From the NCBI GenBank assembly GCA_949289005.1, contig CASEMQ010000033.1, forward strand, positions 1,472-65,471: a stretch of DNA of 64,000 nucleotides, written 5' to 3'. A program made the translations under genes and the position numbers. The notes beneath the pieces were generated by a model. That model did no database searches and was not told the origin of the DNA. It saw nothing but the letters and a program-made list of their open reading frames with translations. Within the stretch, counting starts at the first letter, position 1, and every line of letters starts with the position of its first letter. The DNA is from an uncultured Lentisphaeraceae bacterium. GTDB taxonomy: Bacteria; Verrucomicrobiota; Kiritimatiellia; RFP12; DVOR01. This document shows, piece by piece, positions 4,489 to 63,857 of this stretch.

Positions 4489-4507
4489 GTCGCCTTGGGG
4501 GTCCGGC

Positions 4508-49480: not shown

Positions 49481-49506
49481 GAACAAGGGGTCGGGCGGGC
49501 GGCGAC

Positions 49507-49549: not shown

Positions 49550-49587
49550 GTCTCGCTCGCGGGTGCCGCCGGGGGCGCGTGCGCCAA

Positions 49588-49980: not shown

Positions 49981-49997
49981 TCTGTGTGAGAAAATTA

Positions 49998-51620: not shown

Positions 51621-51765
51621 GGTCTCGCTCCTTTCTGTCGCTCGCGCGAATCGTGAATCGTAAATCGCGAATCGTTTTGTCGGTGGGGCTCCGCCCCACG
51701 CCCTTTCGGCTTCTCCGTCGCCCCGAAGGGGCGGGACTATTTACCAATTACCATTTACCAATTAC
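51621..51765 (-). repeat. Junction element: GAATCG-type array + two GC hairpins + TTTACCA-type array
   Basis: CGAATCGTGAATCGTAAATCGCGAATCG (51647-51674). GTGGGGC-tcc-GCCCCAC. GTCGCCCC-gaa-GGGGCGGG (51717-51735). TATTTACCAATTACCATTTACCAATTAC (51738-51765), which runs over the stop codon of the upstream gene. Confidence 0.85.
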
Positions 51766-52817
51766 TCGCCGGCTCCGCCGGCGGTCTCGTGGGTGGTGGT
51801 TTCGTTGACCTCCTCCACCTCGGTCTGGAGGAGGGTCTCGGGCGGTTCCTCGGTCTTGGTACCGAAGAAGGTGAGGGTGGTGGACGCGGCGGTGATGGCG
51901 CCGGTGCCGGTCTCGTCGGCGGGGGGCGTGTAGGTGAGCTTGGCGTGGAGCTCGGCGGAGACCTGGGTGAGCCAGGCGGCGGGGTCGGGCTCGGTGAGGA
52001 AGAGGAGGGGCGCCTCCAGCGTGCGGATCTCGTCGGCGCCGGCGGCGAGGCTCTGGGTGCGCACGGCCACCTTGGCGAGGGTGTGGGCGTAGACGTGGGC
52101 GGGGGGATAGGGCGTGCCGTCGGCCTTCGTCTTCCGCTCGAAGAGCCACTGCGACTGCGCGGGGTCGGCGGCGTTCTCCACCCAGCGCCAACGCCCGAGG
52201 TATTGGGCGATGCGCGCCTTGCCCTCGACGGTCTCGCGGACGATGGGGCCGAGCTGGTCGCCCGCGTCGCCCACGGCGTCCAGCCAGACGTTTCCCACCC
52301 AGATCTGCGTGACGGCGCCGGCGTCGTCGATCTCGGCCAGGTGGCGCAGGGGGGTGGCCGCGTCGTCCATCTCGCTTTTCAGGCCCAGGTGGAAGGCGCC
52401 CGCCGCGTCGCGCCAGAGCCAGGGGTCGTTGTCGCCCGCCGTGCCGCCGGCGAGGTCCAGGTCGGCGAGCCAGTCGGCGGTGGCGGGGTCGTCGGCCTCC
52501 GGGTCGCGCGTCCAGGAGGAGGGGGTGGCGAGCGTCTGCGCCTCGCCCAGGAGGTAGACGCGGCCGAAGCGGACGCGCAGGGTGGCCGTGCCGGCCTCCG
52601 GGTCGATGGCGACGGTGCACTGGAAGGGCTGGGGCTTGGCGGCGGCCACGGCCGCGCGCGACGCCGCGGCCGCCGCGTCGATGAAGACGCCGCCTGGGGT
52701 CTGCCGGAGGCGGACGTTCGAGCCCGCGAGGGGGCGGTTTTGGCGGATGGCCTCGACGAGGGCGTTCCAGAGGTCGGCGGTGAGGCGTTGGCCGCGGATG
52801 GCGCGGGGTGGGATCAT
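51762..52817 (-). CDS. Phage-cluster protein of unknown function (351 aa)
   Basis: ATG is preceded by CGACTGAAAGGAG. Asp/Ala/Thr-rich with no coiled-coil character. Confidence 0.65.
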   Translation of the reverse strand: MIPPRAIRGQRLTADLWNALVEAIRQNRPLAGSNVRLRQTPGGVFIDAAAAASRAAVAAAKPQPFQCTVAIDPEAGTATLRVRFGRVYLLGEAQTLATPSSWTRDPEADDPATADWLADLDLAGGTAGDNDPWLWRDAAGAFHLGLKSEMDDAATPLRHLAEIDDAGAVTQIWVGNVWLDAVGDAGDQLGPIVRETVEGKARIAQYLGRWRWVENAADPAQSQWLFERKTKADGTPYPPAHVYAHTLAKVAVRTQSLAAGADEIRTLEAPLLFLTEPDPAAWLTQVSAELHAKLTYTPPADETGTGAITAASTTLTFFGTKTEEPPETLLQTEVEEVNETTTHETAGGAGE

Positions 52818-52942
52818 GGGGGGCTCCTTTCAGTCGCACGGAAGTTTGGAAGTTTGGAAGTTTGGCTGATTGGTGGCGCGCGGCAAGCCGCGCGACGGAC
52901 GGGTGCGTTCCAATCAGCCAAACCTCCAATCAGCCAATCACC
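52818..52942 (-). repeat. Junction element: inverted GGAAGTTT / CCAAAC arrays around a GC hairpin
   Basis: GGAAGTTTGGAAGTTTGGAAGTTTGGCTGATTGG (52840-52873), GCGCGCGG-caag-CCGCGCGA, CCAATCAGCCAAACCTCCAATCAGCCAATCACC (52910-52942). The arms pair over ~33 positions, including G-U pairs and a few mismatches. Confidence 0.85.
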
Positions 52943-53147
52943 GGCGCGCCGTCAGGCGCGCCATGAGTTCCTCCTCCAGGAGGGTGAAGCCCTTTGAGCC
53001 GGCGACGGCGCTCTTCCATTGCCGGAAGAGGAGGGCGAGCTGTGCGGCGGGGAGGCGGTGGAGGAGGTGGTGCAGCGGCCAGTGGTAGGTGCGCGCCGCC
53101 CACTCCGCCAGGGCGATCAGCCAGCCGTTGCCGGCGAGGCTTTTTTT
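52938..53147 (-). CDS. -1 frame extension of the chaperone-like gene (putative GT-like frameshift product, +67 aa)
   Basis: It has no start codon of its own. It is open from the A7 run to the TGA at 52938. GC3 is very high and the peptide looks natural (GNGWLIALAEWAARTYHWPLHHLL...). Confidence 0.5.
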   Translation of the reverse strand, partial: KKSLAGNGWLIALAEWAARTYHWPLHHLLHRLPAAQLALLFRQWKSAVAGSKGFTLLEEELMARLTARR

Positions 53148-53590
53148 GGCGCGTCCCCCTCCGGCCCCGGGAGCAGCGCGTAGAAGGCGCGGAGGGCCTT
53201 GAGGGCGGCGACCCAGCGCCGGGAGAAGTCGGCGGGCCTGAGGGTGTCGGCCCAGGCGAAGGCGTCCTCCGTCAGCGTCCTGAGGTGCTTGGCGCCCTGC
53301 GCGGAAGGCAGGCTGAGCAGGTAGAGCCCGGGGATGACGTCGGCGGCGGTCTGCTCGCCGCCGCCCAGCAGGGGGCTCTTGATCTTCTCCAGCAGGGCCA
53401 CCTGGCCGAGGGTGAGGGGGGCGGGGTCGGCGAGGGCGTCGAGGGCGGCCTGGGGGTTGCCGGCGGCGTTTTCGTGAATCGCGAATCGCGAATCGCGAAT
53501 CGTCTCGGGGTGGGGCTCCGCCCCACGCCCCTTCGGCTCGGTTGGCGCCCCCTGCGGGGCGTCCGGCTTGTCTGTGTCCGTTGCGTTCAT
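53117..53590 (-). CDS. Tail-assembly-chaperone-like protein (G-like, 157 aa)
   Basis: Sits directly downstream of the tube-like gene. GGAG RBS. Ends 22 nt after an A AAA AAA slippery heptamer. Confidence 0.55.
   Translation of the reverse strand: MNATDTDKPDAPQGAPTEPKGRGAEPHPETIRDSRFAIHENAAGNPQAALDALADPAPLTLGQVALLEKIKSPLLGGGEQTAADVIPGLYLLSLPSAQGAKHLRTLTEDAFAWADTLRPADFSRRWVAALKALRAFYALLPGPEGDAPKKASPATAG
53141..53147 (-). promoter_or_regulatory. Putative -1 programmed ribosomal frameshift site A AAA AAA
   Basis: Seven A on the coding strand, phased as X XXY YYZ in the zero frame (CCA AAA AAA GCC). Confidence 0.5.
53474..53502 (-). repeat. Inverted copy (28/29) of the CGATTCGCGATTCAC 29-mer, inside the chaperone-like CDS
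   Basis: GTGAATCGCGAATCGCGAATCGCGAATCG is the reverse complement of 53633-53661 with one mismatch. The two arms bracket the RBS and start codon. Confidence 0.9.
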
Positions 53591-53679
53591 TGCTTGTTCT
53601 CCGGTTGGTTTGTCGCGCGCTTGCCGCGCGGGCGATTCGCGATTCACGATTCGCGATTCACGGCGCGGCGAAGCCGCGC
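53591..53679 (-). repeat. Junction element with the CGATTCGCGATTCACGATTCGCGATTCAC 29-mer and GC hairpins
   Basis: 29-mer at 53633-53661, identical to the copies at 57673-57701 and 63829-63857. Flanked by GC hairpins (GGCGCGGC-gaa-GCCGCGCT on the 3' side). Confidence 0.9.
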
Positions 53680-54048
53680 TCAGGACGCGCTGGGCCAGTT
53701 CTCGTAACGTTCGAGGGTGAGGACGAGCTTGCGGAAGTCGCGGTTGCTCTCGATCTCGCGGCAGGAGAGGATGGCGAAGGTCTTGGTGCCGACGGTGAGG
53801 GTTTCGGTGCTCCCGGCGGAGAAGGTGGGGAGGTCGACGGTGGTGGGCGCCAGGAGGGTGGCGGTGACGGTCGTCTTCTTGTCGTAGTCCTGGCGGTGGA
53901 CCACGGCGCCGTTCTGGTCCTGGCAGTAGGCCACCTGGGTCTCGTCTGCGCACTCCCAGTCGGTGATGATGCACGTGGCGTAGTCGCCGCCAAGGGATTT
54001 GTCCACGCCCCAGCCGGGGGTCGTGATGTCTGCGGGGTTGGTTGCCAT
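53680..54048 (-). CDS. Small major tail (tube)-like protein, 122 aa
   Basis: Beta-rich and Thr-rich, of the size typical for siphovirus/GTA tube proteins. Sits immediately upstream of the frameshifting pair. The call rests on position and composition only. Confidence 0.45.
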   Translation of the reverse strand: MATNPADITTPGWGVDKSLGGDYATCIITDWECADETQVAYCQDQNGAVVHRQDYDKKTTVTATLLAPTTVDLPTFSAGSTETLTVGTKTFAILSCREIESNRDFRKLVLTLERYENWPSAS

Positions 54049-54215
54049 GGGGTTCACTCCTTTCGTTCGTTTCACTCACTTCAGTCGTTCGCGTGAACGG
54101 TTATCGGTTATCGGTGAACGGTTGGCGCTTCCGCGCCTGCCTTCGGTTTGTCTGTCGCCCCGCAGGGGCGAACCGTTCACCGTTCACCGCTTTCCGTTCA
54201 CCCACGCGCGGGGCG
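54049..54215 (-). repeat. Junction element: inverted CGGTTATC/GGTGAAC arrays around GC hairpins
   Basis: GTGAACGGTTATCGGTTATCGGTGAACGGTTGG (54093-54125), GGCGC-ttcc-GCGCC, GTCGCCCC-gca-GGGGCGAAC (54154-54173), GAACCGTTCACCGTTCACCGCTTTCCGTTCACCC (54170-54203). Confidence 0.85.
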
Positions 54216-54614
54216 CTACCGCGCCACGAGCGTGTCAAAGGTGGCGGTGGCCTGGAAGAGGTCGACCTGGGGTACGTGCTCGACGGTGCGGAGCATGAGG
54301 TTGGGTCCGTCGAGGGCGAGGGCGGCGTGCCAGGCGGCGTCGAGGGCGGTGGCGGCCTGTGGGCGGGCGCGGTTGAGCGTGGGGTTCTCGAGGGCGAGGA
54401 GCTCCACGCTCACGTTGAGGGCGGGGCGGTTGTTTTCGGCGCGGGGGGCGCGGAGGATGAGTGCGCAGCCGGTGCCGGAGAGGACGGCGCGCTCGACCTC
54501 GCTGAGGATGTCGAGCTGGTTCTCGATGAGGACGGCCACGCCGTGCTCGGCGTACCAGGGGTCGGCGTCGAGGGTGGCCTTCAGCCAGGCCAGCAGTGCT
54601 TGAATCGGGTTCAT
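54216..54614 (-). CDS. Phage structural-module protein, 132 aa (head-tail joining/tail terminator-like by position)
   Basis: GAAAGGAA RBS. Lies between the morphogenesis-like gene and the tube-like gene. No motif recognised. Confidence 0.5.
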   Translation of the reverse strand: MNPIQALLAWLKATLDADPWYAEHGVAVLIENQLDILSEVERAVLSGTGCALILRAPRAENNRPALNVSVELLALENPTLNRARPQAATALDAAWHAALALDGPNLMLRTVEHVPQVDLFQATATFDTLVAR

Positions 54615-54627
54615 GCTTTGTTCCTTT

Positions 54628-55215
54628 CTATCGTGCGGCGGCGGAGGCGGCGGTTTCGAGGGCGTTGAGGGCGGCGCGTGCGAGGGCGTCGTCGATGGTC
54701 TTTTGGTCGGGGAGGAGGGTCGGGTCGCGCCGTTGGGTGACGGAGGCGCAGAGGGCGTACATGGGGGTGAGTTTGCCGCCCTCCTCGGTGGCGAGGATGC
54801 GGGTGCCCTTGGGGCGGAAGAGATCGGCGCCGGAGAGGTTGGCAAACTCGCGGGGGCGTTTGCCGTAGGCCTCGGCGCGCAGGGGGATGGTGAGGGCCTT
54901 GGCGCGGCGCGGGCGGATGATCACGTCGCGCACGGCGCGGGCGATGCCGGGATGGGTCACGGAGACCTCGGCGTCGTTGGCGTGGGTGTGGAGGCTGACG
55001 GCCTTCTCGACATCCTTCCAGAAGCCGGAGGGAGGGGCGCCGAGGCGGTTGGCGGTGTCGTGGCGGGTCTCGGACACACGCGCCAGGTGGCGGATGATGA
55101 GGGTCTGGAGGGCGCCCGCGGCGGCCTTGGCCAAAAGCCCCGGGGTGATGCGCTCCACCCAGCGCCGCTGCCACCCGGCCAGCCGCTCCGCGGGAATGGT
55201 GATGGTTACGCTCAT
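54628..55215 (-). CDS. Phage virion-morphogenesis/head-tail joining-like protein, 195 aa
   Basis: The start overlaps the upstream stop (ATGA). The RBS sits in the loop of a GCAGGC/GCCTGC hairpin. The family assignment is tentative. Confidence 0.5.
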   Translation of the reverse strand: MSVTITIPAERLAGWQRRWVERITPGLLAKAAAGALQTLIIRHLARVSETRHDTANRLGAPPSGFWKDVEKAVSLHTHANDAEVSVTHPGIARAVRDVIIRPRRAKALTIPLRAEAYGKRPREFANLSGADLFRPKGTRILATEEGGKLTPMYALCASVTQRRDPTLLPDQKTIDDALARAALNALETAASAAAR

Positions 55216-55406
55216 GGCAGGCTCCCTTCGGTCGCCTGCGGAAGTTTGGAGGCTTGGAGGCTTGGAAGCTTGGTTTGTAACATCTCAATCTCGGTGCGCA
55301 GGGCGTTGAGTTCCTCCTCGTGGTCACGGTCGCGCATCATTGCGCTGATTGCCGCGGCCAGGAGAAAGCCGAGCAGGATGCAAAGGATAACGTCAAAGAG
55401 GTTCAT
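55212..55406 (-). CDS. Small single-pass membrane protein (64 aa)
   Basis: GGAAAGGAA RBS. N-terminal TM (ILCILLGFLLAAAISAMM) followed by a charged helix. The last ~15 codons are supplied by the CCAAGC array. Confidence 0.45.
   Translation of the reverse strand: MNLFDVILCILLGFLLAAAISAMMRDRDHEEELNALRTEIEMLQTKLPSLQASKLPQATEGSLP
55240..55273 (-). repeat. GGAAGNTT-type tandem array (solitary)
   Basis: GGAAGTTTGGAGGCTTGGAGGCTTGGAAGCTTGG. Confidence 0.85.
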
Positions 55407-55578
55407 GCTTGCATTCCTTTCCGATTTATGCGATAGTAAGGGCGTTCTTCAGGAAGGGCCGAAACGGCGGCGATGCTTCCTGACGGGCTATCGTGGGGCC
55501 GTCCCCGCTTGATACACTTTGGAAGGACGTAGGTGCCTTCCCTACCCCTTGGCGGCCGCTTCGGCGGTCGCCTTTTCT

Positions 55579-56772
55579 TTATGCGAAGTGCCATCCCGAG
55601 ACCTTTCCCGTGTTGTGGTAGACGTAGACCTTCAGCGTGTGGCGCCCGTATCGTTCTGTGTAGACCGCTTGCGTCCCCGGCGGCGGATCCAGATAGTCCG
55701 GCGTCGTCCCGTCCGGGAACTTGAGCGTGCGTTCCCCGTGCTTGACGGCATGGATGGCGGCGGGGAGCCACTCCAGATTCTCCGGCTTGGGGGTGTTGTC
55801 CTTCCGCCTTTGGCCAAAGCGATAGTGGTCACGGGCAAAGCGGTCGAAGCGGATGGCCCTGCCGTCTGAGCTCTTGACCGAGAATCCGTCATTGAGTGCC
55901 CGTTCGGCCTCCTGCCGCGAGCATTTACCCTTGTGTCCCACAATGGGGGATTTGCCCTTCGTTCCGCCATGTCTCGGGTCGTGGCACTCGCCGTCCTTGT
56001 CTAGGAAGGAGCCGTCCTGCGGGCATTGCTTGGCCTTGTTTCGGATGGCGCGGAGGGTGAGGGCGGTGATGAGGAGGGCGGCGGCGCGGCGGGCGGCGCG
56101 GTTGGTGGCCTCGCCGAGCAGGCCCAGTTCCTTGGTCTCGAGGCGGTCGACGTGGACCCAGGCGTAGGAGGAGCCGAAGGCGAAGGGCGGATAGGGGTTG
56201 CCGAGGGTGTCCCGGAAGCCGCCCGCGCCGTCGCCCAGCGCCTGCCAGATGGGGGAGGATTTGAGGGCGACCATCTTGGTGCGGTGTGCGCCCTGCCAGG
56301 CGACGCGCTCGCCGGCGGCCTTCCAGCGTTGGGGCCAGTCGGTGCGGTGGTGTTTGCGGTAGCCGGTGCTGAGCAGCTCCCAGGCGGGGAAGAGGGCGGC
56401 GACCTGCGGGTCCTCGCTCTCGGCCAGCCGGGCCAGCGAGGCGGCGGTCTTTTGGTTGGTGTCGAGGACGAGGTTGAGGCGCGCGAGGGTTCGGGCGTCC
56501 TTGAGCGTCCCTTCCGTGCCGGGCTCGGGCGCGTAGCCGAGCTGGGCGAGCGTGTCGGTGAGGGCGAGGCGCGCGGCGGAGGCGTCGAGCGTGCCGTCGG
56601 CCACCTGCATGAGCACGGCCTGCACGCGGTCGAGGTAGCCCTGGAGCGTCATGCGCGCGGAGAAGAGGGCCTGCTCGCGCAGGCGCTGGGACCAGCGGGC
56701 GCGGATGCCCGCGGTGTCCAGCGCCGTGGGCGTTGGGGTCTTGAGGCCGATGATCTCCGCGACGGACGGCAT
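55579..56772 (-). CDS. MuF/SPP1-gp7-like minor head protein (tentative) with ~150-aa basic C-terminal extension
   Basis: Central region YRKHHRTDWPQRW ... NPYPPFAFGSSYAW resembles the MuF core. The C-terminus is His/Lys/Arg-rich. CGACTGAAAGGAG RBS context. Confidence 0.4.
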   Translation of the reverse strand: MPSVAEIIGLKTPTPTALDTAGIRARWSQRLREQALFSARMTLQGYLDRVQAVLMQVADGTLDASAARLALTDTLAQLGYAPEPGTEGTLKDARTLARLNLVLDTNQKTAASLARLAESEDPQVAALFPAWELLSTGYRKHHRTDWPQRWKAAGERVAWQGAHRTKMVALKSSPIWQALGDGAGGFRDTLGNPYPPFAFGSSYAWVHVDRLETKELGLLGEATNRAARRAAALLITALTLRAIRNKAKQCPQDGSFLDKDGECHDPRHGGTKGKSPIVGHKGKCSRQEAERALNDGFSVKSSDGRAIRFDRFARDHYRFGQRRKDNTPKPENLEWLPAAIHAVKHGERTLKFPDGTTPDYLDPPPGTQAVYTERYGRHTLKVYVYHNTGKVSGWHFA

Positions 56773-56941
56773 GGGGTGCTCCTTTCAGTCGCACGGTAAA
56801 TGGTAAATGGCAATTGGTAAGTGGTGGTTGGTGGGGGTGGCACGGCCACCGCGGGATCGCCCCACGCCCCGGCGACTTCTTTGTCGCCCGTCAGGGCGGG
56901 GCTATTTACCATTTACCATTTACCATTTACGAATTGCCATT
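56773..56941 (-). repeat. Junction element: inverted GGTAAAT / ATTTACC arrays around GC hairpins
   Basis: GGTAAATGGTAAATGGCAATTGGTAAGTGGTGG (56795-56827), GTCGCCCG-tca-GGGCGGG (56883-56900), CTATTTACCATTTACCATTTACCATTTACGAATTGCCATT (56902-56941, covering the last codons of the upstream gene). Confidence 0.85.
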
Positions 56942-57232: not shown

Positions 57233-57373
57233 GGTGTTTCTCCTTTTGGGTGGAAGTTTGGAAGATTGGAGGCTTGGAGGCTTGGGTTGCGCGACGGATG
57301 AAACCGCGGATCTCGCGGATTTTGGCAGATTTGGGGCGTGCTGCCGCACGCGGGACTGCCAGTGTGGGAAGGC
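57233..57373 (-). repeat. Junction element: GGAAGNTT array + palindromes + conserved 35-bp box
   Basis: GGAAGTTTGGAAGATTGGAGGCTTGGAGGCTTGGG (57252-57286), CCGCGGATCTCGCGG, and the box GATTTGGGGCGTGCTGCCGCACGCGGGACTGCCAG (57328-57362). Confidence 0.85.
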
Positions 57374-57865: not shown

Positions 57866-59013
57866 GGGGTCTCCTCCTGGGTGGCGAAGGGCGGGTAGGG
57901 CGGCGCCTTGCCAGGGTTATGGCGGGGCTTGGCGGAGGCGCGTGCGGAGAGGGTGGTGGTGGCCGTGGGGAATAAGGAGTGCTCGTCGTGGGTGAGCTCG
58001 CTTTCGGGGATGAGGCCTCGGCGAGCCATCTCGGCGGCGTCTCGGGCGCGGATGGTCTGGAGCTCCGCGTCGGTGAGCAGCCGCCGGAAGCCCTTCCCGC
58101 CCCAGAGGCGGTAGGTGACGTCGAGCCCATTGTAGGTTCTTGGGCGCGTGCAGAGGAAGGGGAAGACGGTGGCGGGCGCGGGGAGGGCGTCGGCCCCGTA
58201 GAGGGGGAGGGTGACGGTGACGTCCTCCTCGGCCGTGCGGCAGCCGTCGGGGTAGTAGGCGCGTGCGCGCACCGTGGCCACCTGGTTGGTGACGGCCACC
58301 TGCAGCGTCGCCATCCCCCACTGCGAGGCCAGCAGGATGGGGGAGGAGTCGCCGGCCTCCTTGTAGCCGAGGCATTCGGTGAGGTAGCAGCGCACGAGCT
58401 TGGGCGCGGCCACCTCCAGCGTCCACGAGCCCGTGGTCGTGAGGGTGAGCGGTTTGCCGTCCCGCACCGTCAGCGGCACGCCCAGGTGCGTCCCCGCCGC
58501 GTGGGTGTTGGCGTCCATGAAGCCGCCGTCGAGCGTCGTCTCCTCCGAGCAGGTCAGGTTGTAGGCGATGTTCCCCTGGCGGATGGGATACGCCTCCGAG
58601 CCCGGCACGAAGCAACCTTCCGGCCAGGGGTCTGCCCACGTCTTGCTCCCCGTGCCGCTCTCCGGGCCGATGAAGGTGGTCCCCACGGCCTTGCCGATGG
58701 CCTCGTCGGGGACGTGGAAGAAAATCGGGAACCAGTAGCTGTCCGAGCCGTCGAGGTTGGCCCAGACCACGAAGGTGGCCTCGGTGATGGGGGCTTCGGC
58801 GCGGAAGAAGCCGCCCGTCTGCCAAGGGAAGTTCTCCGCCCCGGATTGGGCGTTGGCGAAGGTGTCGCCCACCGTGGCCGGGCCCATGAGGGTGGGCTCC
58901 AGAACGGGCGTGCGCAGGAGCGGCACCTGCCCCTCCGCGCCGAAAACGAATGCGGCCGGCGCGCCCAGGCCGATGAGCGCGGTGGCGGTGAGGCAACGGA
59001 ACACGTCAAACAT
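57862..59013 (-). CDS. Signal-peptide-bearing protein of unknown function (383 aa), translationally coupled to the fibre gene
   Basis: AGGAGG RBS. N-terminal signal-like [20 protein letters not shown]. Overlaps the fibre gene stop by 8 nt. Confidence 0.65.
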
Positions 59014-60751
59014 TGGAATCCTCCTTCAGGATTGGGGTCAGGTAGACCATGTCGCCCACCTTGTAGGCCGTGGCGTGGTAGGTCGCGCCCGCCTCCAGCG
59101 TCGCGTAGCCCACGATGCGGATGTTGTCGCCCACGCCGGTGAAGGCCGCGGGGAGGACGAGGCGGACGAAGAGCTGCGCGCCGTCCGTCCATCCGGTGGC
59201 CGAGGCCGTGAGCGTCGCGCCGGTGGGCGAGACGGTGAGCATGGAGCAGGCGTCGTGCCATTGGATCACGTTGTCGCTCTGCGCGGTGTCGGCGGGCAGA
59301 TCTACGTAGAGGCCGTCGGTGCCGCACTTGATGCCGCCGCCCGAGCGTAGGGCGACGTTCAGTTGGTTGGGGCTGACGGTGGTTTTCAGCCCGTTCCCCA
59401 CTCGGAGCTCCAGTCCGTCCGTGCCGATCCCCAGACCGGCCGGATAGAGCTTCAGCGAGAGGACGCCCTCCGCGCTCTTCTCCAGCCCGTCGCCGGCGGT
59501 GACGGATGCGTCGTCGCCGGGGTCACCCTTGTCCCCCTTGGGGCCTTGGGGCCCTTGGGGGCCGGTCGCGCCTTGTGGCCCCGTGTCGCCCGTGTCGCCC
59601 TTCGGCCCCTGCGGCCCCTGCGGGCCGGTCGCGCCGTCCTGCCCGTCGGCGCCGTCCTTGCCTGCGGGGCCTTGGGGGCCGGTGTCGCCGGTGTCGCCCT
59701 TCGGGCCTTGGGGGCCAACCTCGCCTTGGGGCCCCTGCGCGCCGTCCTGGCCGGGGTCGCCCTTGTCGCCTTTCTCGCCCTTTTCGCCTTGGGGGCCTTG
59801 GGGGCCGGGGGTGAGCTCGATTTCGTCGATGGCCTGGCGGATGTCGGCGTGGGCGTCGGCGGCGCGGTTGTGGGCGACAATCTTGTTGGCGACGTCGAGG
59901 ATGCGGGCGATGCTCTCGTCGAGCTCCTCGCCGGCGGGGGAGAGGACGTAGACGCGCGCCGGCGTCACCCCGTCGGCCGCGTGGACGGTGATGGCGCGGG
60001 CCTGGAAGAGGGTGGCGCCCCGGAGGTCGGCGACGCCCTGCCCCGCCTGCGTGCCGATGATCAGGCCGCCGACGCCGCCCTGCTGGACGAGGATGGCCCA
60101 GAGCCCCGCGACGTCGAGCGGCGTGGCGCGCGCGGGCTGGGCGGGATCGTAGAGCCCGACGTAGCGCAGGTCGGCGCGGACGAGGGTGAGGGCGCCCACC
60201 TGCTCGGCGGTGACGGCGTGGGGGTTGTCCGTGCGCGTGGCGTGGGCCTCGATGGCGTCCCCCAGCTTGTCGAGTTCGGATTCGGGGAGGAGCTGGGCGG
60301 GGGTGAAGCCTGGGCTGGGGGCGAGGTCGAGGGTGCCGTAGGCGCGGAAGGAGGCGCCGCCGGGGGTCTCAAGGGCGAGGAAGAAGCGGACGCGGTCGGC
60401 GCCCGTGTCGCAGTCGGGCCCCCAGTCGGCGGAGAGCTCGCCCGTCGCGGGGTCGTAGGCGCCGGCCTTGGCGTACCATTCGTCCTCGCCCATGCCGTCG
60501 GTCTGCCAGCGGAGGGCGACGGCGCCGCCGGAGAGGCCGGTGAGGGGCGCGCCATACTGCAGCGGCACGCAGGCGAGGGTGAAGGTCTCGCCGTGGAAGG
60601 CGCGCGCGCGGAAGGGCTTGGGGGCGCTCACCTCGGTCTGCCAGGCGAAGCGCAGGGGCGCGGAGGGAACCGCCGATCCCGCGGATTGGGTGCGGATTTG
60701 GGGCGTGCTGCCGCACGCAGGACTGCCAGATTGATTGATGTTTTCTGCCAT
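59006..60751 (-). CDS. Collagen-like-repeat fibre protein (581 aa)
   Basis: 33 uninterrupted G-X-Y triplets (nt 59510-59806). [14 protein letters not shown] motif, common in phage fibres. GGAG RBS before the ATG at 60751. Confidence 0.75.
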
Positions 60752-60814
60752 CGGTTTTCTCCGTCGCCCGTCAGGGCGTTGCCAAGCTTCCAAGCCTCCA
60801 AACTTCCAAGCTTC
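60752..60814 (-). repeat. Junction element: GC hairpin + CCAAGCTT-type array
   Basis: GTCGCCCG-tca-GGGCG (60763-60778), then CCAAGCTTCCAAGCCTCCAAACTTCCAAGCTTC (60782-60814), the inverse of the GGAAGNTT arrays. Confidence 0.85.
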
Positions 60815-61245
60815 TAGTCGAGGATATGGTTGTGGGTGACGGAAATCTGGGGAGTGGGGAGGGCGACGGCGTCGGGGGCCTCGAGGTTTTCGTTCTCGGG
60901 CGGGGCGTAAGAGACCTTGGCGAGGGCGTCGCGGACGGCCATGGCGCGGTCCCACTCGGCCACGCGGCGCTCGTCGAGGAGTCCGCGCATCCCCGGCAGG
61001 CGCGTGAAGGCGCGGTAGCGGAAGTCGGCCAGGACGTGGATGAGGATCTCGCTGGGCACCGCGTCGGTGCGCTTGTCGAGGGCGGTGACGCGGCGGAGGC
61101 CGCCGCGCCAGTCCTCGGCGACCTCGTGGGCGATGGCCGCGAGGGGGGCCTCCTGCCCCCAGCCGGCGGCGGCGTTGGCCAGCGCGTCGTGCTCGGGGGC
61201 GGAGAGGCGGCTCAGCAGGGTGTCGGCGGTGAGGATTTGCCACAT
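60814..61245 (-). CDS. DUF1320 (Mu gp36-like) head-tail connector protein
   Basis: 143 aa. The N-terminal [12 protein letters not shown] pattern and the position right after the capsid gene are typical of the family. Confidence 0.6.
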
Positions 61246-61372
61246 ATGCTCGCTCCTTTCAGTCGCTCGGTTGTCGGTTTTGGGTTTTCGGTTTTCGGTT
61301 GGTTTGTCGCCCCGCAGGGGCGCAACCGGCTACCGATGGCCGTCAACCGACGACCGGGGCGCGAAGCGCCCC
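61246..61372 (-). repeat. Junction element: inverted CGGTTTT / AACCG arrays around GC hairpin
   Basis: CGGTTGTCGGTTTTGGGTTTTCGGTTTTCGGTTGG (61268-61302), GTCGCCCC-gca-GGGGCGC (61306-61323), CAACCGGCTACCGATGGCCGTCAACCGACGACCGG (61323-61357), GGGGCGC-gaa-GCGCCCC. Confidence 0.85.
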
Positions 61373-62281
61373 TCACGCCGTCGCGGCGGAGACGAGGCGG
61401 ATGCACTTTTCGGGCTGTGCGAGGGCGGCGCCGAAGAGGGCCTCGATGGTGGCGTAGTTGGAGCCGGTGGCGGGGTCGCCGTGGCGGCGTGCGCCGAGGA
61501 CGAGGCCGGAGACTTCGTCGCGGGTGGTGCCGATCTCCTCGTAGACGGAGGGGGAGAGGACGGGGACGAGGCGCGCGGCGACGACCATGCCATCGGTGGG
61601 GATGAGGGCGCCGTTGAGCTTTTCGTCGGCGGAGGCGGAGAGGTCGCCGTTCTCCATGACGGCCTTGAAGCCGTAGAGGCCCTGGACGATGCCGAGCCGG
61701 ATGGCCTCGGGGCCGCCGTAGACGTTGGCGTCGAGGGTGGCGAGGAGGTCGGCGAAGAGCTTGGGGGAGAGCATGAGGACGGTCTCGCCGGGGTCGATGT
61801 CGGCCTTGGCGCAGGCGTCTCGGAGCTGCGCGACGGTGGTCTTGGAGACGGAGGAGAAGACGACCTCGTTGGTGGCGGACTTCTTGATGTTGGTCTTGTT
61901 GATGAGTGCGGAGACGGAGGAGGCGATGGCCTTGGAGATGGCGATGCCGCTGGCCTCGCCGGCCTTGCCCCAGAAGTTGGTGCCGTTGACGAGGGTGAAG
62001 TCTTTGTCGGTGAAGCCGAAGGTGTGCTTGACGTGGTGGTCGAAGGTGACGGGGACGTAGATGACGGTGCCGTCGACGGTCTCGTAGTTGTTGGTGGAGG
62101 CGTTGAACTCGGAGGCGGCGTCGTGCTTGAAGACGGGGACCTTCATGGTGGTGCCGGGCTGGACGGCGTCGGCGGAGAAGTCGGTGGCGAAGTAGCCGAC
62201 CTTGGCCAGGGCCTTGCGGGAGGCGATGATGGCCTTGTCGGTGGAGAAGGTCAGATTGGGGGAGGTGAGGGAAGTGGCCAT
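61373..62281 (-). CDS. Major capsid protein (302 aa)
   Basis: Follows the protease/scaffold gene. Size and composition fit HK97-fold/Mu gpT-like coat proteins. Slightly lower GC than its neighbours. Confidence 0.7.
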   Translation of the reverse strand: MATSLTSPNLTFSTDKAIIASRKALAKVGYFATDFSADAVQPGTTMKVPVFKHDAASEFNASTNNYETVDGTVIYVPVTFDHHVKHTFGFTDKDFTLVNGTNFWGKAGEASGIAISKAIASSVSALINKTNIKKSATNEVVFSSVSKTTVAQLRDACAKADIDPGETVLMLSPKLFADLLATLDANVYGGPEAIRLGIVQGLYGFKAVMENGDLSASADEKLNGALIPTDGMVVAARLVPVLSPSVYEEIGTTRDEVSGLVLGARRHGDPATGSNYATIEALFGAALAQPEKCIRLVSAATA

Positions 62282-62333
62282 TGGAGTGTCCTTTTGGAAG
62301 GTTGGAAGTTTGGAGGCTTGGCTGCCTTGGGTC
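62282..62333 (-). repeat. Junction element: solitary GGAAGNTT array
   Basis: GGAAGGTTGGAAGTTTGGAGGCTTGG (62296-62321). Confidence 0.85.
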
Positions 62334-62750
62334 TCAGAGGAGGCCGCGTTCGATGGCGGCGCAGCGCTCCTCGGGGGAGTTGCAGGCGGCCAGGGGGTTG
62401 GCGGGGGCGGCCGGGCGGCGGGCGGCGGCGGCGTTGCAGACGGGGCGCGCGGCGGGGGCGGGCGCGGGGGCCTTGAGGCAGGCGAGGGTGGCCTTGACCG
62501 TGTCGCGGTTGGCCACGTAGAGGCGCTTGAAGGCGTCGCGGTTGGCGATCTTGTCCTTGTTCTCCTCGGCGACGGCGTCGGCCTCGGCGTTGAGCGCCGC
62601 CTCCTGCGCCTGCGCGACGGTCTGCGCGAGGCCTTCGGCGGCCTGGATGATGGCCGCGTCGTCGGCGTCGGGGCCGAGGCCGAGGATCTCGAGGAGGCGC
62701 GCGCGGAGGTCGGGCGCGGCGGGGGTGGGTTCGGTGGTGTCTTCGTTCAT
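62334..62750 (-). CDS. Scaffold protein, nested in frame in the 3' part of the protease gene (Mu gpZ-like arrangement)
   Basis: Internal ATG at 62750 with its own CGACTGAAAGGAG context. Acidic/Ala-rich helical peptide (LAQTVAQAQEAALNAEADAVAEENKDK). Confidence 0.6.
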   Translation of the reverse strand: MNEDTTEPTPAAPDLRARLLEILGLGPDADDAAIIQAAEGLAQTVAQAQEAALNAEADAVAEENKDKIANRDAFKRLYVANRDTVKATLACLKAPAPAPAARPVCNAAAARRPAAPANPLAACNSPEERCAAIERGLL

Positions 62751-63383
62751 GGTGGGGTTTCTCCTTTCAGTCGAAACGGTTTGAGGTTGTCGGTTAAAAG
62801 TTCGTTCGCTTCGCTCACTGTCGGTTGGTTTGTCGCCCCACAGGGGCGAACCGAGAACCGTCAACCGAGAACCGTCAACCTGCCCGGGAGCCCGATTCAT
62901 AATCGGGCGGACGGGCAGATTGGGCTTGTTGGTGAGGCCCACGGAGACCAAGCGCACGGGGCGGCCGTGTGGGTCGAGCTCCCAGACGGGGGAGAGGAAG
63001 CGGAGGCGGCGGTTGGAGACGGCGTCGGCCCCCGCGTCGGTGAAGCGGAAGGTGGCCATGAGGCCCTTGGCGGGGTCGACGCGCACGCGCTGCACCCAGG
63101 CCGCCGCCTCGGTGTCGCCGCCGGTCTCGGCGTGGTGCTCGAAGTCGACGAGGACCTCCGGGCGGAAGTTGGCCACCACGGCCTCGAAGGCCGCCCGGTC
63201 GCACCGCTGGATCACGCGCTCATCCCCGCGCAGGCCGGGATAGTTCCCGTAGGGCGAGAGCTGCACCTCCAATTCCGCGCCGGCCTTGAGGCCGCCTTGG
63301 GAATTGGGGAGAACGGCGAACGGCGAGCGGTGAGCGGTTCGCCCCGCCGGGGCGTCCAAATCGTCTCTGTCCAACGCATCCAT
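62334..63383 (-). CDS. Mu gpI-like prohead protease fused in frame to scaffold
   Basis: The N-terminal ~190 aa resemble Mu-like prophage protein I (FEHH ... AAAW ... RFLSPVW ... GLTNKPNL). There is no stop before the scaffold part. GAAGGA RBS before the ATG at 63383. Confidence 0.65.
   Translation of the reverse strand: MDALDRDDLDAPAGRTAHRSPFAVLPNSQGGLKAGAELEVQLSPYGNYPGLRGDERVIQRCDRAAFEAVVANFRPEVLVDFEHHAETGGDTEAAAWVQRVRVDPAKGLMATFRFTDAGADAVSNRRLRFLSPVWELDPHGRPVRLVSVGLTNKPNLPVRPIMNRAPGQVDGSRLTVLGSPLWGDKPTDSERSERTFNRQPQTVSTERRNPTMNEDTTEPTPAAPDLRARLLEILGLGPDADDAAIIQAAEGLAQTVAQAQEAALNAEADAVAEENKDKIANRDAFKRLYVANRDTVKATLACLKAPAPAPAARPVCNAAAARRPAAPANPLAACNSPEERCAAIERGLL
62751..62917 (-). repeat. 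Junction-type element embedded in frame in the protease-scaffold linker
   Basis: CGGTTTGAGGTTGTCGGTT ... GTTCGTTCGCTTCGCTCACTGTCGGTTGG, GTCGCCCC-aca-GGGGCGAA (62832-62850), GAACCGAGAACCGTCAACCGAGAACCGTCAACC (62849-62880), and the CCCGATT-cat-AATCGGG hairpin. Confidence 0.85.
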
Positions 63384-63525
63384 CGTTCGTCCTTCGCTCC
63401 GTTCACCGTTCACCGATAACCGTTCACCGATAACCGCGGGCGACAGCCCGCCTGTTCATGCCCACAGTGTCGCACAGGGCCCGGGGCGACTGAAGGGTAA
63501 CTCCCGCAACTCTGCCAGGTTTGGC

Positions 63526-63564
63526 AAAAAACGGACGGCCCGCCCCGTGGGGCGAGCCGTCCGT
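63526..63564 (-). terminator. Rho-independent terminator inside the control region
   Basis: On the minus strand, ACGGACGGC-tcgccccacggggcgg-GCCGTCCGT is followed by TTTTTTG. Confidence 0.65.
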
Positions 63565-63668
63565 TGGTTTTCGGTTTTCGGTTCGTTCGCTGCGCTCACT
63601 GTCGGTTTTCGGTTTGACCCGTCGCGCGGCTCGCCGCGCGCAACCGATAACCGATGACCGATAACCAC

Positions 63669-63738
63669 GGGGTCTCGGCGGCGGCCGCCGCCGAGACCCC
63701 GTTGCAAAGGCCCTTGCAAGCGTTGCAAAACGTTGCAA
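63669..63738. promoter_or_regulatory. Perfect 32-bp palindrome followed by 4x TTGCAA (candidate operator array)
   Basis: GGGGTCTCGGCGGCGGCCGCCGCCGAGACCCC (63669-63700). TTGCAA at 63702, 63714, 63723 and 63733 (spacings 12, 9 and 10). Confidence 0.5.
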
Positions 63739-63828
63739 AGATTTTCCGCGTGGGATTTTGCCTCCCGCCCTCCCCGGCGCGTCTACGGGGCGTTCTCGCG
63801 GGTGTGTGCGCGGCGTCCCGCCGCGCGG

Positions 63829-63857
63829 CGATTCGCGATTCACGATTCGCGATTCAC
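63829..63857 (-). repeat. Third identical copy of the 29-mer CGATTCGCGATTCACGATTCGCGATTCAC
   Basis: Exact match to 53633-53661 and 57673-57701. It contains the stop codon of the upstream gene. Confidence 0.9.

Follow-up and report, generated by a model that had tools for sequence, protein, structure and literature searches.

Tandem heptamer repeats in bacteria and phages

Intergenic tandem heptamers that form hairpins are known from cyanobacteria, where they are called STRR and where those between hupS and hupL have been proposed to act in transcript stability or translational coupling (PMC2670836). Intergenic tandem heptamers with hairpins also include the GGGAATC arrays of Xanthomonas and arrays of Nostoc (PMC4692102), and the TAACTGA heptamer of Beggiatoa (PMC4679880). 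A passage of the latter paper, citing Mrazek 2007, attributes the heptamer excess among bacterial repeats to polymerase slippage (PMC4679880). Among phages, cluster K mycobacteriophages carry SAS/ESAS, a conserved RBS motif with inverted repeats 5′ of it (PMC3203893), and the PeSL cassettes of T4-type phages provide a precedent for gene exchange at short homologies (PMC2839356). The original prediction for the present locus, which described it as neither CRISPR nor REP/BIME, was right in this respect and overstated the case in calling the architecture unrecognised. Heptamer-repeat hairpins are common to this locus and to cyanobacterial STRR, but here they are phage-borne and modular.

A Mu-like prophage with repeat arrays at its gene junctions

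The window, that is, the whole stretch of 64,000 nt that was analyzed, contains the right-hand part of a Mu-like prophage on the minus strand (49968..64000), truncated by the window edge at 64000. Its end at 49968 has the sequence TGTATTCTCTCAC, which we take to resemble a Mu end. The phage assignment of 49968..64000 is based on a phrog_283 capsid and a collagen tail fibre, and relatives of the prophage encode Mu Gam, TniB/MuB-like, and Mu-like_Pro_N proteins, while a host FtsX/MacB gene (47986-49374) lies outside it. All array cassettes are within the prophage part, and the 13 array-bearing junctions all belong to a single co-directional gene string of this prophage of a gut Kiritimatiellota, in which almost all gene junctions are occupied and the cassettes extend from the upstream stop codon to the RBS. 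An assembly artefact was excluded, as an independent assembly (L003) is identical to the window across 11 kb and the same array families are present in eight other assemblies.

Arrays were detected by sequence reading, TRF, and custom period-7/8 scans requiring at least 10 matched positions and a GC content of at most 0.66. With these settings, 18 period-7/8 arrays lie in the prophage part (49,968-64,000) versus one in the host part (1-49,967; binomial p = 2e-11), and this lone array is 17 nt long and weak. All arrays that had been predicted, in both orientations, were found again in place, and their absence from the first 49 kb is likewise borne out. The 29-mer CGATTCGCGATTCACGATTCGCGATTCAC is exact at 53633, 57673, and 63829, with inverted copies at 53474 (one mismatch) and 51646 (three mismatches), and no chance matches are expected. 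The recurrent GC hairpin, GTCGCCC-N5-GGGCG, occurs four times versus 0.13 expected, with variants read directly from the sequence at 56883 and 60763; a core motif occurs four times versus 0.2 expected; and the predicted pre-start context at six genes, the RBS module GTGCGACTGAAAGGAGC, has six copies versus 0.21 expected, six of six on the minus strand. Arrays, GC hairpins, and RBS module are confined to the gene strand. The array units comprise at least seven unrelated sequences, two arrays, at 62776 and 61323, are degenerate, and the families' stop-codon content (4-5 of 7) amounts to a statistically weak trend.

Ribbon-helix-helix (RHH) repressors bind contiguous heptads, as does omega of pSM19035, or 8-bp metboxes, as does MetJ. 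The contiguous 7-/8-bp units of the prophage, in three to five direct and inverted copies, have a similar operator-like geometry, and one leader cassette common to many genes resembles a regulon; both would fit binding sites for a nucleic-acid-binding protein (an RHH repressor on DNA or an RNA-binding regulator on shared leaders). That reading is nevertheless quite improbable: at least seven unrelated units would demand as many specificities, scans of the cassette region found no sigma-70-like promoters, neither the relatives' precomputed Pfam hits nor our own scans produced an RHH or other candidate gene, and the same junctions are cassette-free in close relatives.

Organization of the cassettes

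In the sense direction of the minus strand, the first element is a composite intergenic region of 470 nt (63384..63884). Its G-rich A array (63829-63857), which lies in the loop of a 17-bp GC stem (63809-63884), gives the upstream ORF its stop codon. This array is followed by an X element (about 63681-63825), a 36-bp palindrome that is perfect (63667-63702), a D array (63641-63665), an E array (63566-63581), an intrinsic terminator (63521-63562), and, immediately upstream of the protease gene, G-rich D arrays (63397-63436). Between the protease and scaffold coding regions lies an E-type hairpin cassette (62751..62877, minus strand; fold z = -5.05), consisting of TGA and a (GGTTGAC/GGTTCTC) array, the GC hairpin TCGCCCCTGTGGGGCGA with CAAACCAACCG, the complementary AACCG array, and the RBS module TTTCGACTGAAAGGAGA. 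This junction is empty in L004, L006, L007, and L009 and holds other cassettes in L001, L005, and L008 and in L002.

Immediately 5′ of the capsid RBS is a solitary C-rich B-family array (62282..62333, minus strand; sense CCAAGCCTCCAAACTTCCAACCTTCCAA), which L001-L008 retain, whereas L009 has a C-rich ACCAYTT array in its place. A second E-type hairpin cassette follows 3′ of the capsid gene (61246..61375, minus strand; z = -4.24), with a GC hairpin whose loop is UUCG, then a G-rich arm, the core hairpin and GGGGCGACAAACCAACCG, a AACCGAAAACCG array, and the RBS module GAGCGACTGAAAGGAGC; in L009 the orthologous junction measures 60 nt, whereas L001-L008 have other cassettes there and a junction length of 320-366 nt. 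The tail-fibre gene is preceded by a solitary G-rich B array (60752..60816, minus strand; sense TAG-AAGCTTGGAAGTTTGGAGGCTTGGAAGCTTGG) and then the GC hairpin GCCCTGACGGGC.

Further along the same strand is a heterologous pair at 57617..57701, where a G-rich A array provides the TGA stop and a non-complementary C-rich B array follows directly, ahead of the RBS module GTTCCACTGAAAGGAGA. A dispersed repeat, Y, which contains hairpins, precedes a solitary C-rich B array and an RBS at 57233..57376, and this array is predicted to be unpaired in sense RNA. The C-type hairpin cassette at 56773..56941 has the strongest fold (z = -6.56) and inverted arms that are 81-95% complementary: a (GGTAAAT)n array giving a TAA stop is followed by nested GC hairpins, which separate it from an (ATTTACC)n array and the RBS module GTGCGACTGAAAGGAGC. 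The C-rich B array at 55240..55273 (sense CCAAGCTTCCAAGCCTCCAAGCCTCCAAAC) overlaps the 3′ end of a 64-aa ORF, upstream of the RBS of the gene at 54628-55215. At 54049..54215, a D-type hairpin cassette (z = -4.77; 41-nt arms, 78% complementary) has the core hairpin TTCGCCCCTGCGGGGCGACAGACAAACCG and a further GC hairpin between its (GGTGAAC)n and (ACCGTTC/ACCGATA)n arms.

The last two cassettes, also on the minus strand, combine families. That at 52818..52953 mixes G and B (z = -5.64; 39-nt arms, 77% complementary), with a GGCTGATTGG/GGAGGTTTGG arm followed by a GC hairpin whose loop is CUUG and then by CCAATCAGCCAAACTTCC arrays and the RBS module GTGCGACTGAAAGGAGC. The heterologous cassette at 51621..51764 folds weakly (z = -1.14) and has a TAA stop from a G-rich C-family array; three GC hairpins come next, and a C-rich A array, degenerate in sequence, precedes the RBS module GAGCGACAGAAAGGAGC. 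Stop codons are thus supplied by arrays, as had been proposed, for example in the composite region, the heterologous pair, the C-type cassette, and this last one.

Polarity, pairing, and folding

Counts in three related genomes revealed a strict polarity. Arrays on or just past a stop codon are G-rich in 15 of 15 cases, those at most 45 nt upstream of a start are C-rich in 19 of 25, and those in the first 200 nt of ORFs are C-rich in 14 of 16. Adjacent arrays form 24 G-then-C pairs and no C-then-G pair, and polarity is independent of pairing, because 8 of the 24 are non-complementary and keep the order nonetheless. In L001, two arrays next to a minus-strand gene are inverted together with that gene. 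A palindromic element is G-first on both strands, and polarity could also be a tolerance filter that places stops first and stop-free sequence second.

Among the G-then-C pairs, 16 of 24 are at least 80% complementary, versus 8.5 +/- 1.7 when partners are shuffled (500 shuffles, maximum 13). The hairpins of 90-130 nt that had been predicted are recovered at five junctions (62.8, 61.3, 56.8, 54.1, and 52.9 kb), where folding is much stronger than in shuffled sequence (z from -4.2 to -6.6). Four junctions with solitary or non-complementary arrays have weak folds (z from -1.1 to -2.2), and folding predicts no pairing of solitary C-rich leaders in sense RNA. Arm mispairs in the sense strand comprise 22 G.U versus 24 A.C, which is no strand-specific RNA signature, and antisense strands fold about as well as sense strands. 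Lack of covariation, which the original prediction had named as evidence against the folds, is literally what the orthologue alignment gives, with 0 of 32 pairs changed on both sides, in sequences so similar that they carry little information. The SD lies outside the main stems and is not sequestered.

A cassette with its own start codon

The A-cassette (53472..53679, minus strand) has 30-nt arms that are 97% complementary. In sense order, it comprises a post-stop GC hairpin, a CGTGAATCG x4 arm (53633-53662), a GC hairpin with CGACAAACCAACCG, an SD, an ATG at 53590 that is followed by 10 codons, a pair of GC hairpins, and a CGATTCRCG x4 arm (53473-53502) translated in frame into a 157-aa ORF. 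Full copies of this dispersed repeat occur at three further genes. Its ATG matches the frame of four different downstream genes, and the ATG-to-hairpin spacing is a constant 30 nt. Homologues in L001 and L009 are without the A-cassette, and an A-cassette reading frame is maintained in L009 despite indels of 41 and 7 nt.

Unit lengths that are not multiples of three, one-unit differences between strains, and 3′ arms inside ORFs would suit phase-variation switches, in which gain or loss of a 7-/8-nt unit between the cassette start codon and the gene body shifts the frame. Such switches are very improbable, since arrays are mostly non-coding and the one-unit differences observed at near-identical loci are all in untranslated arms. 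The untranslated 5′ arm of the A-cassette differs by one heptad, whereas its translated arm does not; in the tail-fibre cassette, five loci have the same number of units in the translated arm, and indels elsewhere total a multiple of three.

Turnover among related phages

In related prophages whose capsid shares at least 80% identity, the array families are the same and number about one per kb. Density falls from about 1 per kb in the closest relatives to 0.5 in L009, 0.1 in L010, and 0 in L011-L016, and no arrays were found in the more distant Mu-like relatives. A single junction has four states among relatives, and near-identical phages are empty there or have different cassettes. The cassettes appear dispensable, as close relatives (L010 and parts of L009) have compact, cassette-free junctions. 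This presence/absence polymorphism, the strict polarity, and the start-codon cassette are new beyond the original prediction.

Neutral or selfish repeat DNA, made of heptamer or octamer slippage products and small palindromes, recently expanded in this phage lineage and tolerated at harmless sites (junctions and permissive protein termini) with no role in expression, is an unlikely explanation with several points in its favor: density declines with phylogenetic distance, junctions gain, lose, or replace families among near-identical phages, unit number varies, G.U asymmetry and compensatory change are lacking, and slippage is the cause given for heptamer excess in the passage cited above (PMC4679880). 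Arbitrary tandem heptamers exist in IMG/VR too, where the control CAGTTCR x3 matched 9 stretches and GGTAART x3 matched 17. However, the host 50 kb, under the same replisome, is essentially array-free, arm matching is above chance, and a tolerance filter could account for some of the polarity and leaves the arm matching unexplained. The G-then-C order is strict even in non-complementary arrays, all close relatives retain a C-rich array 5′ of the capsid RBS despite a family swap, and the A-cassette start codon stays in frame.

Alignments of the window with its relatives break at junction cassettes in every case, adjacent gene blocks are sharply unequal in identity (e.g., 97% beside 80%), cassettes are swapped at fixed sites, and in L001 a block of X element and A array is found at another place and in another orientation. 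These observations and the PeSL precedent (PMC2839356) would fit module-boundary recombination sequences, with shared arrays of 20-35 bp, core, and RBS modules as short homologies for gene exchange between related phages. As the primary role this is improbable, although the role, one of those first proposed, is viable. Dozens of identical direct and inverted copies in one 23-kb genome should yield deletions and inversions, no recombinase was recognized in the window or in the relatives' precomputed Pfam hits, mosaic boundaries at junctions are normal in phages without such repeats, and G-then-C polarity and hairpins are left unexplained.

Distribution beyond the lineage

The same architecture is present in an unrelated phage (L029), and also in one Pyrinomonadaceae (Acidobacteriota) genome, where CGATTCR hairpins are chromosomal, between co-directional genes beside pyrG. 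The G-first polarity extends to this phage and chromosome (44 versus 4). A generic host repeat, the alternative raised originally, does not describe the present host, but the Acidobacteriota genome shows such hairpins on a chromosome.

Cassettes as proposed intercistronic punctuation

The best explanation, tentative and at somewhat less than even probability, is that these STRR-like hairpin cassettes are intercistronic mRNA punctuation that originates by slippage and spreads by recombination. The comparisons above establish the anatomy, polarity, turnover, and lineage distribution of the cassettes. The typical cassette has four parts. First comes a G-rich, C-poor array of three to five units of 7-8 nt, whose start coincides with the upstream stop or lies no more than about 20 nt away from it. 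Between one and three short GC hairpins come next, in many cases with CGACAAACCAACCG behind them, and then a C-rich, G-poor array that as a rule complements the first array. The fourth part is a conserved Shine-Dalgarno (SD) module (GTGCGACTGAAAGGAGC); the A-cassette instead has an SD and ATG of its own in the loop. Since most families of G-rich array contain TGA or TAA, stops arise in all three frames, and an upstream ORF would be terminated immediately in any frame.

Working in cis on polycistronic mRNA, the hairpin would insulate, and probably stabilize, both cistrons, and a ribosome ending the upstream ORF may melt the stem base and free the unstructured C/A-rich leader beside the SD, providing translational coupling or a ribosome standby site. 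Stability or processing hairpins and translational gating, both among the roles first proposed, are viable and make up this explanation, although gating is not obvious because the SD lies outside the main stems. For the copying mechanism, we infer that arrays grow and shrink via replication slippage, that template switching within the palindrome may maintain arm similarity, and that whole cassettes may relocate between junctions and phages through recombination at shared arrays, core, and RBS modules. The prophage cassettes are a phage-borne, modular version of the poorly understood STRR heptamer hairpins, and they probably act on the mRNA between genes.

The prophage and its gene content

The gene cluster forms the right-hand portion of a Mu-like prophage, whose end lies at about 49,968 and reads TGTATTCTCTCAC; positions 49,968-49,998 read TGTATTCTCTCACTCTG, which resembles the left end of Mu, TGTATTGATTCAC. 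A host PEP-CTERM-like open reading frame (ORF; about 49,588-49,970) directly adjoins this end and is followed by a host FtsX/MacB permease gene (47,986-49,374). Searches of ten prophage proteins against PHROGs and Pfam recognized only phrog_283, the major head protein, and a tail fibre with collagen repeats. In contigs whose capsid is identical, Mu Gam, a TniB/MuB-like ATPase, and a Mu-like protease-scaffold gene are also found. The named relatives are gut Kiritimatiellota metagenome-assembled genomes, including Candidatus Spyradenecus faecavium. The capsid matched none of 50,697 GenBank phage records and, by peptide patterns, nothing in IMG/VR.

The element seems small, about 23 kb when 49,968-64,000 is taken together with the related prophage loci L001 and L002, and neither Pfam nor PHROG recognized a terminase or portal between Gam and the right end in the window, L001, or L002. 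In the relatives L011-L016, Terminase_6N and Portal_Mu lie immediately upstream of the protease. Either the terminase and portal are highly diverged, with the 540-, 397-, 383-, and 351-aa proteins (all without Pfam or PHROG matches) as candidates, or the element is a satellite-like transposable element.

Several further features of the gene cluster deserve mention. Within the 157-aa ORF starting at 53,590, an A7 run at 53,140-53,147 (minus strand; sense CCA AAA AAA GCC) looks like a putative programmed -1 frameshift site of the tail-chaperone G/GT type; the -1 frame past the run extends the ORF by about 55 residues, to about 52,954, and the run is the same in the independent assembly L003. Three small ORFs (57,374-57,865 and 55,212-55,406) look, from their sequences, like a putative lysis or spanin set, comprising an 80-aa ORF with a lipoprotein-type LAC motif, a 55-aa ORF that is hydrophobic and then basic, and a 64-aa ORF with a membrane helix followed by a coiled coil. 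Amid the early genes of L001 (6,554-6,904, minus strand) is a 23S_rRNA_IVP-domain gene, whose four-helix-bundle family also counts the DGR accessory protein Avd among its members; a reverse transcriptase was not seen in the L001 locus. Between an early-side gene and the protease gene lies a canonical intrinsic terminator with a long GC stem and a T6 run (63,521-63,562, minus strand, sense), the only sense-strand terminator found, and near it a perfect 36-bp palindrome (63,667-63,702); the two probably mark an operon boundary.

Tandem arrays and hairpins at gene junctions

The original prediction placed short tandem arrays, GC hairpins, and a pre-start motif at the junctions of this cluster and saw none of them in the first 49 kb of the window. 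Direct reading of the sequence recovered each array claimed at 51,400-64,000 at its position, and Tandem Repeats Finder (TRF) reported period-7/8/14/16 arrays of at least three copies only past 51.6 kb. Our own scan, which applied one fixed criterion to the whole window, located 18 arrays in the prophage (49,968-64,000; 14,033 bp) against a single weak 17-nt array in the 49,967 bp of host DNA that made up the host side (binomial p = 2e-11). By TRF and our own scans, the 18 arrays have periods of 7 (or 14) and 8 (or 16) and contain 2.5-5 units apiece; they belong to at least seven unit families and occupy 13 junctions.

The predicted 29-mer, CGATTCGCGATTCACGATTCGCGATTCAC, is exact at 53,633, 57,673, and 63,829, with inverted copies at 53,474 and 51,646. 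The GC hairpin, as GTCGCCC-N5-GGGCG, occurs four times against 0.13 expected, the core GGGGCGACAAACCAACCG that flanks it four times against 0.2, and the pre-start motif GTGCGACTGAAAGGAGC six times against 0.21; all four motifs lie on the minus strand within the gene cluster. Folding energies at five junctions fall well below those of dinucleotide shuffles (z -4.2 to -6.6), and four junctions with solitary or non-complementary arrays fold weakly (z -1.1 to -2.2). An assembly artefact is ruled out, since L003, assembled independently, is identical across 11 kb. The repeat feature is genuine and statistically solid.

Cassette anatomy and polarity

The cassettes have a modular anatomy. Read in the mRNA sense, a typical one runs from a stop codon through a G-rich array, one or more GC hairpins (often trailed by CGACAAACCAACCG), and a C-rich array to the ribosome-binding site (RBS) module and the ATG. 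Polarity was strict in the window, L001, and L002 taken together, where arrays overlapping or closely following a stop codon were G-rich in 15/15 cases, those no more than 45 nt upstream of a start were C-rich in 19/25, and those within the first 200 nt of ORFs were C-rich in 14/16. Adjacent arrays formed 37 non-redundant pairs, with G-then-C order in 24, C-then-C in 11, G-then-G in two, and C-then-G in none.

The two arms of a cassette also match each other more often than chance would allow. At least 80% complementarity was found in 16 of the 24 G-then-C pairs, compared with 8.5 ± 1.7 when partners were shuffled (maximum 13 in 500 shuffles); array-to-array pairing was used for these tests, as pairing with any downstream sequence mixed true partners with spurious GC-rich coding matches. 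The remaining eight pairs mix families and still keep the order, for example an A-family array with a C-rich B-family array at 57,617-57,701 and a C-family array with an A-family array at 51,621-51,764. Neither pairing nor polarity is thus random, and each is partly independent of the other.

TGA or TAA is present in most G-rich units, and a stop-bearing array closes every reading frame, its period not being divisible by three. In six of seven families the complementary units contain no stop codon, which with so few families amounts to a trend and not a proof. A palindromic element has the same arm first on either strand, so the G-first order (G-rich array before C-rich array) describes the element type and not, by itself, the transcribed strand. 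Information on strand comes from the solitary and heterologous arrays, and two arrays beside a minus-strand gene in L001 follow the direction of that gene.

A cassette that carries a start codon

One type, the A-cassette, is a dispersed repeat of 150-190 nt, with three full copies and many half copies per 20-kb locus and none in the host part or in distant relatives. Its 5′ part, in the sense orientation, consists of four copies of CGTGAATCG, a GC hairpin with CGACAAACCAAC, and a Shine-Dalgarno (SD) sequence with ATG; ten codons follow, then the hairpin GCCCCGCAAGGGGC, sometimes GGGGCGGAGCCCC, and four copies of CGATTCRCG, an arm that continues into the downstream gene. The copy at 53,472-53,679 heads the 157-aa ORF, the homologues of which in L001 and L009 begin directly with an ordinary RBS.

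The sequence comparisons indicate that the start codon supplied by the A-cassette is functional and that the cassette extends the N terminus by 45-50 residues, because its ATG is in frame with four different genes, the spacing from ATG to hairpin is a constant 30 nt, the reading frame is kept, and the translated 3′ arm is constant among loci, while the untranslated 5′ arm varies by one heptad. The L009 copy keeps its frame since its indels of 41 and 7 nt sum to 48. An invertible promoter (inverton) was considered for the opposed A-family arrays and dropped, as the ATG in the spacers, which also carry an SD, is in frame with essential genes; with a dozen identical sites, moreover, a genome would be scrambled.

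Turnover among related prophages

The same array families are present in L001-L009, the capsids of which are 80-100% identical to that of the window, together with two extra families, GGAGAAC and CCAATCAG. Array density in these loci is about one per kb, and the early region also bears arrays. Locus L010, at 80% capsid identity, has compact, often overlapping genes and only short C-rich proto-arrays, before two RBSs, and Mu-like relatives at or below 63% capsid identity have no arrays, despite the same GC content in one pair.

The cassettes are the least conserved part of these prophage genomes, and every BLAST alignment break falls on one. Such breaks could be read as the mark of recombination signals, an improbable account of what the cassettes are. 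Replacement at fixed sites is clearest in the linker between protease and scaffold, which exists in four states between near-identical flanks: empty in L004, L006, L007, and L009, an A-family cassette in L001, L005, and L008, a B-family array in L002, and, in the window, an E-family hairpin that brings a stop, RBS, and ATG of its own. Just past the capsid gene, the junction is a simple hairpin of 60 nt in L009, measures 126 nt in the window, and consists elsewhere of stacked cassettes spanning 320-366 nt, with one-unit copy differences among sequences that are otherwise 97-99% identical. From these copy-number differences and cassette swaps, the arrays have the behaviour of simple repeats prone to slippage, and the cassettes that of exchangeable modules. 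One-unit changes could also be imagined to serve phase-variation switches, a very improbable role for the arrays.

The main rival to a functional interpretation treats the cassettes as selfish or neutral repeats that are tolerated. That the cassettes are young and can be dispensed with is clear, but this view leaves arm matching and the order kept by non-complementary arrays unexplained, and we consider it fairly unlikely.

Two further dispersed elements occur in the prophage. The Y repeat (CTGGCAGTCCyGCGTGCGGCAGCACGCCCCAAATC...) is found at a non-coding junction (57,290-57,365) and again inside the N-terminal coding part of the tail-fibre gene (60,650-60,735). The X element (63,681-63,862) spans about 180 nt and contains several GTTGCAA(A/G) motifs. 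Situated upstream of the protease gene, it is inverted relative to the copy that L001-L008 carry downstream of the capsid gene (L001 11,012-11,211), and could be a candidate regulatory site or small RNA gene.

Occurrence in unrelated genomes

The same layout occurs in unrelated genomes. Three tandem copies of CGATTCR occur in 19 contigs of IMG/VR and in over 120 from metagenomes, at GC contents from 0.32 to 0.76, and about 45% of the arrays in these contigs have an inverted partner within 250 nt. Of the complementary pairs in these unrelated contigs, 44 have the G-rich array first and four the C-rich one. L029, an unrelated IMG/VR phage (GC 0.56) whose capsid and protease are of the HK97 type and whose tail proteins are T7-like, bears heptamer arrays of several families at nearly all junctions (for instance 270-370, 1,660-1,765, 4,505-4,650, and 5,125-5,340), built from unit families other than those of the window and ordered as stop, G-rich array, C-rich array, AAAGGAG, and ATG. 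In L083, a chromosomal contig of Pyrinomonadaceae (Acidobacteriota), hairpins of the form (TCGTRAA)n-loop-(TTYACGA)n fill four gaps around the CTP synthase gene pyrG (7,042-7,130, 8,848-8,924, 9,201-9,272, and 12,462-12,535). T-runs follow some heptamer hairpins in other organisms (L083 and another unrelated contig, L115), so those of L083 look like terminators there. Shuffled control heptamers gave 0 and 9 matches in IMG/VR, GGTAART 17, and CGATTCR 19; as tandem heptamers exist with many sequences, no special status is claimed for CGATTCR.

A far-reaching and, in our judgement, unlikely interpretation is that the cassettes form a cross-phylum, undescribed class of orientation-neutral "gene punctuation" elements that spread actively among phages and bacterial operons via unexplained copying. 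Each element would be a palindrome with a G-rich, stop-bearing array first and a stop-free, C-rich array second, often bringing an RBS or start codon, and could be inserted into any junction or intragenic linker without harm to its neighbours. If this is true, the G-first rule (24 pairs against none here; 44 against four in unrelated contigs, including an Acidobacteriota chromosome and a different type of phage) would be the signature of the class, and the finding would gain weight if cross-phylum G-first cassettes prove to be actively spreading.

Comparison with known repeat classes

The closest known elements are the short tandemly repeated repetitive (STRR) heptamer sequences of heterocystous cyanobacteria, which form hairpins between hupS and hupL in Nostoc and Anabaena and have been suggested to act in transcript stability or translational coupling (PMC2670836). 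Like STRR, the window cassettes have at least three head-to-tail 7-nt units, several families in one genome, non-coding positions, and inverted, hairpin-capable arrays between co-transcribed genes; they share the defining features of STRR except genome-wide chromosomal spread. STRR are spread over the chromosomes of filamentous cyanobacteria, whereas in this Kiritimatiellota host the arrays are restricted to a prophage, the 49,967 bp of flanking host DNA examined containing one weak array. The cassettes differ further in that units of 8 nt occur too and that the arrays are combined with a fixed RBS module as well as GC hairpins, one type also carrying a start codon.

Other bacteria carry comparable heptamers. 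Xanthomonas GGGAATC and Nostoc GGGGAYT arrays mostly comprise four units, vary between relatives, are sometimes inverted, and have been proposed to act through G-quadruplexes (PMC4692102), and Beggiatoaceae TAACTGA arrays lie just upstream of start codons, with stop codons inside (PMC4679880). Each of these genomes has hundreds of intergenic arrays, mostly of 2-6 units (PMC4692102; PMC4679880). As in the window, array length varies between close relatives and some pairs are inverted; unlike in the window, there is essentially one unit sequence, the arrays are chromosomal, and an RBS module and cassette turnover are undescribed. The window arrays contain no G-runs, unlike those of the G-quadruplex proposal. 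A literature search of incomplete coverage found no report of heptamer hairpins in phages, Kiritimatiellota, or Acidobacteriota and no description of the G-first rule, and the array sequence itself gave no paper. Relative to STRR-type repeats, the host, genomic context, polarity, modular turnover, and start-codon cassette have not previously been noted.

Phages offer two analogies. In cluster K mycobacteriophages, start-associated sequences (SAS; 13-bp GGGATAGGAGCCC) lie 3-8 nt before start codons, contain the SD, are asymmetric and absent from the host genome, and have no explained function; about half are preceded by ESAS, 17-bp inverted repeats 4-13 bp apart (PMC3203893). These resemble the cassettes in being phage-specific, with an SD-containing motif before many starts and imperfect inverted repeats upstream. 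However, ESAS arms are single 17-bp units whereas the window arms are tandem arrays 27-137 nt apart, SAS/ESAS are conserved with gene families whereas the cassettes turn over rapidly, and the window motif is GTGCGACTGAAAGGAGC; the layout is analogous and the family different. The promoter-early stem-loops (PeSL) of T4-type phages, which join a strong sigma-70 promoter to a terminator (PMC2839356), are likewise small repeated junction cassettes in which related phages differ by insertion, deletion, or replacement. They were rejected as a match, since no sigma-70-like promoter was found in 49,000-64,000 (weak evidence, as the scanned consensus may not be that of the host phylum) and the cassette hairpins lack U-tracts. 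The cassettes end in an RBS module, and intrinsic terminators were rejected as well.

Rickettsia palindromic elements and two mRNA-folding miniature inverted-repeat transposable elements (MITEs), Correia/nemis of Neisseria and ERIC of enterobacteria, are dispersed palindromes of 100-190 nt in host chromosomes, with fixed terminal inverted repeats and target duplications, which are co-transcribed and can be read through into proteins. The A-cassette and the Y repeat are read through in the same manner, but the window arms are tandem arrays of at least seven families. Set against MITEs, which derive from IS elements, the arms act like inverted repeats but belong to many families; filled and empty alleles of the protease/scaffold site, the one polymorphic site compared, show 14 nt replaced and no target duplication, and no transposase other than Mu-type genes was seen in the Pfam annotations of the relatives. 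The expectation that the elements are neither CRISPR (23-50-nt repeats with unique spacers) nor REP/BIME (palindromes of about 35 nt, hundreds in the host, with a RAYT gene) was borne out by units that are 7-8 nt, contiguous, and spacerless, and by hairpin and core motifs absent from the host part. Integron attC sites are an improbable match too, as the cluster has no integrase and its genes form a fixed structural operon.

Omega- and MetJ-type operators consist of contiguous heptads or 8-bp boxes at promoters, with a gene for a ribbon-helix-helix (RHH) repressor. The geometry of the arrays fits such protein-binding sites, and the unit sequences are many and unrelated; the Pfam matches in the window and its relatives include no RHH gene, and no promoters were found either. 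We regard protein binding as distinctly improbable. T7-type RNase III sites are double-stranded stems of at least about 20 bp between cistrons that are cleaved by host RNase III, and stems of 20-30 near-perfect pairs are present here.

Evidence for a proposed action in the mRNA

The transcript hairpins foreseen in the original prediction fold well at five junctions and drew nothing from covariation, an alignment of seven orthologous hairpins being uninformative with no compensatory changes. Antisense strands fold as well as sense strands, and wobble pairs gave no strand signal (22 G.U versus 24 A.C positions in 24 arm pairs). Stable tetraloops (GNRA, UNCG, or CUUG) numbered eight in sense and four in antisense of about 130, which is not significant, and the perfect-hairpin search had much coding background. 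Rfam at the gathering score returned only tRNAs for the whole window, and the sole match from scanning the prophage by E-value was at chance level. The case for action in the mRNA rests on position (stop codon to RBS), polarity relative to genes, and built-in translation signals, and not on structural covariation.

On this basis we tentatively favour, at somewhat less than an even chance, a combined reading in which the cassettes punctuate mRNA and evolve by slippage and recombination. They would act in cis on a polycistronic mRNA, where the upstream ORF would be closed by the cassette whatever its frame and the hairpin would insulate or stabilize cistrons. Main stems begin 0-20 nt past the stop codon, and the footprint of a terminating ribosome would reach every stem base; that ribosome may open the stem, freeing a G-poor leader beside the SD. 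Arrays may grow by slippage, with arms homogenized via template switching, and cassettes may spread through recombination at shared modules.

Biological significance

To our knowledge, tandem heptamer arrays are among the commonest unexplained bacterial repeats, and none has an established function. This prophage lineage provides a compact comparative system, with the same genes present with and without cassettes and several families sharing one layout; strict polarity and the start-codon cassette also make it experimentally useful, and ideas of stability, coupling, and slippage become directly testable. Should the cassettes prove to insulate or couple translation in a genome of 70% GC, they would also be useful parts for engineering expression in high-GC hosts. 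If they are only tolerated junk, they would show how quickly non-coding DNA can invade a tightly packed phage genome.
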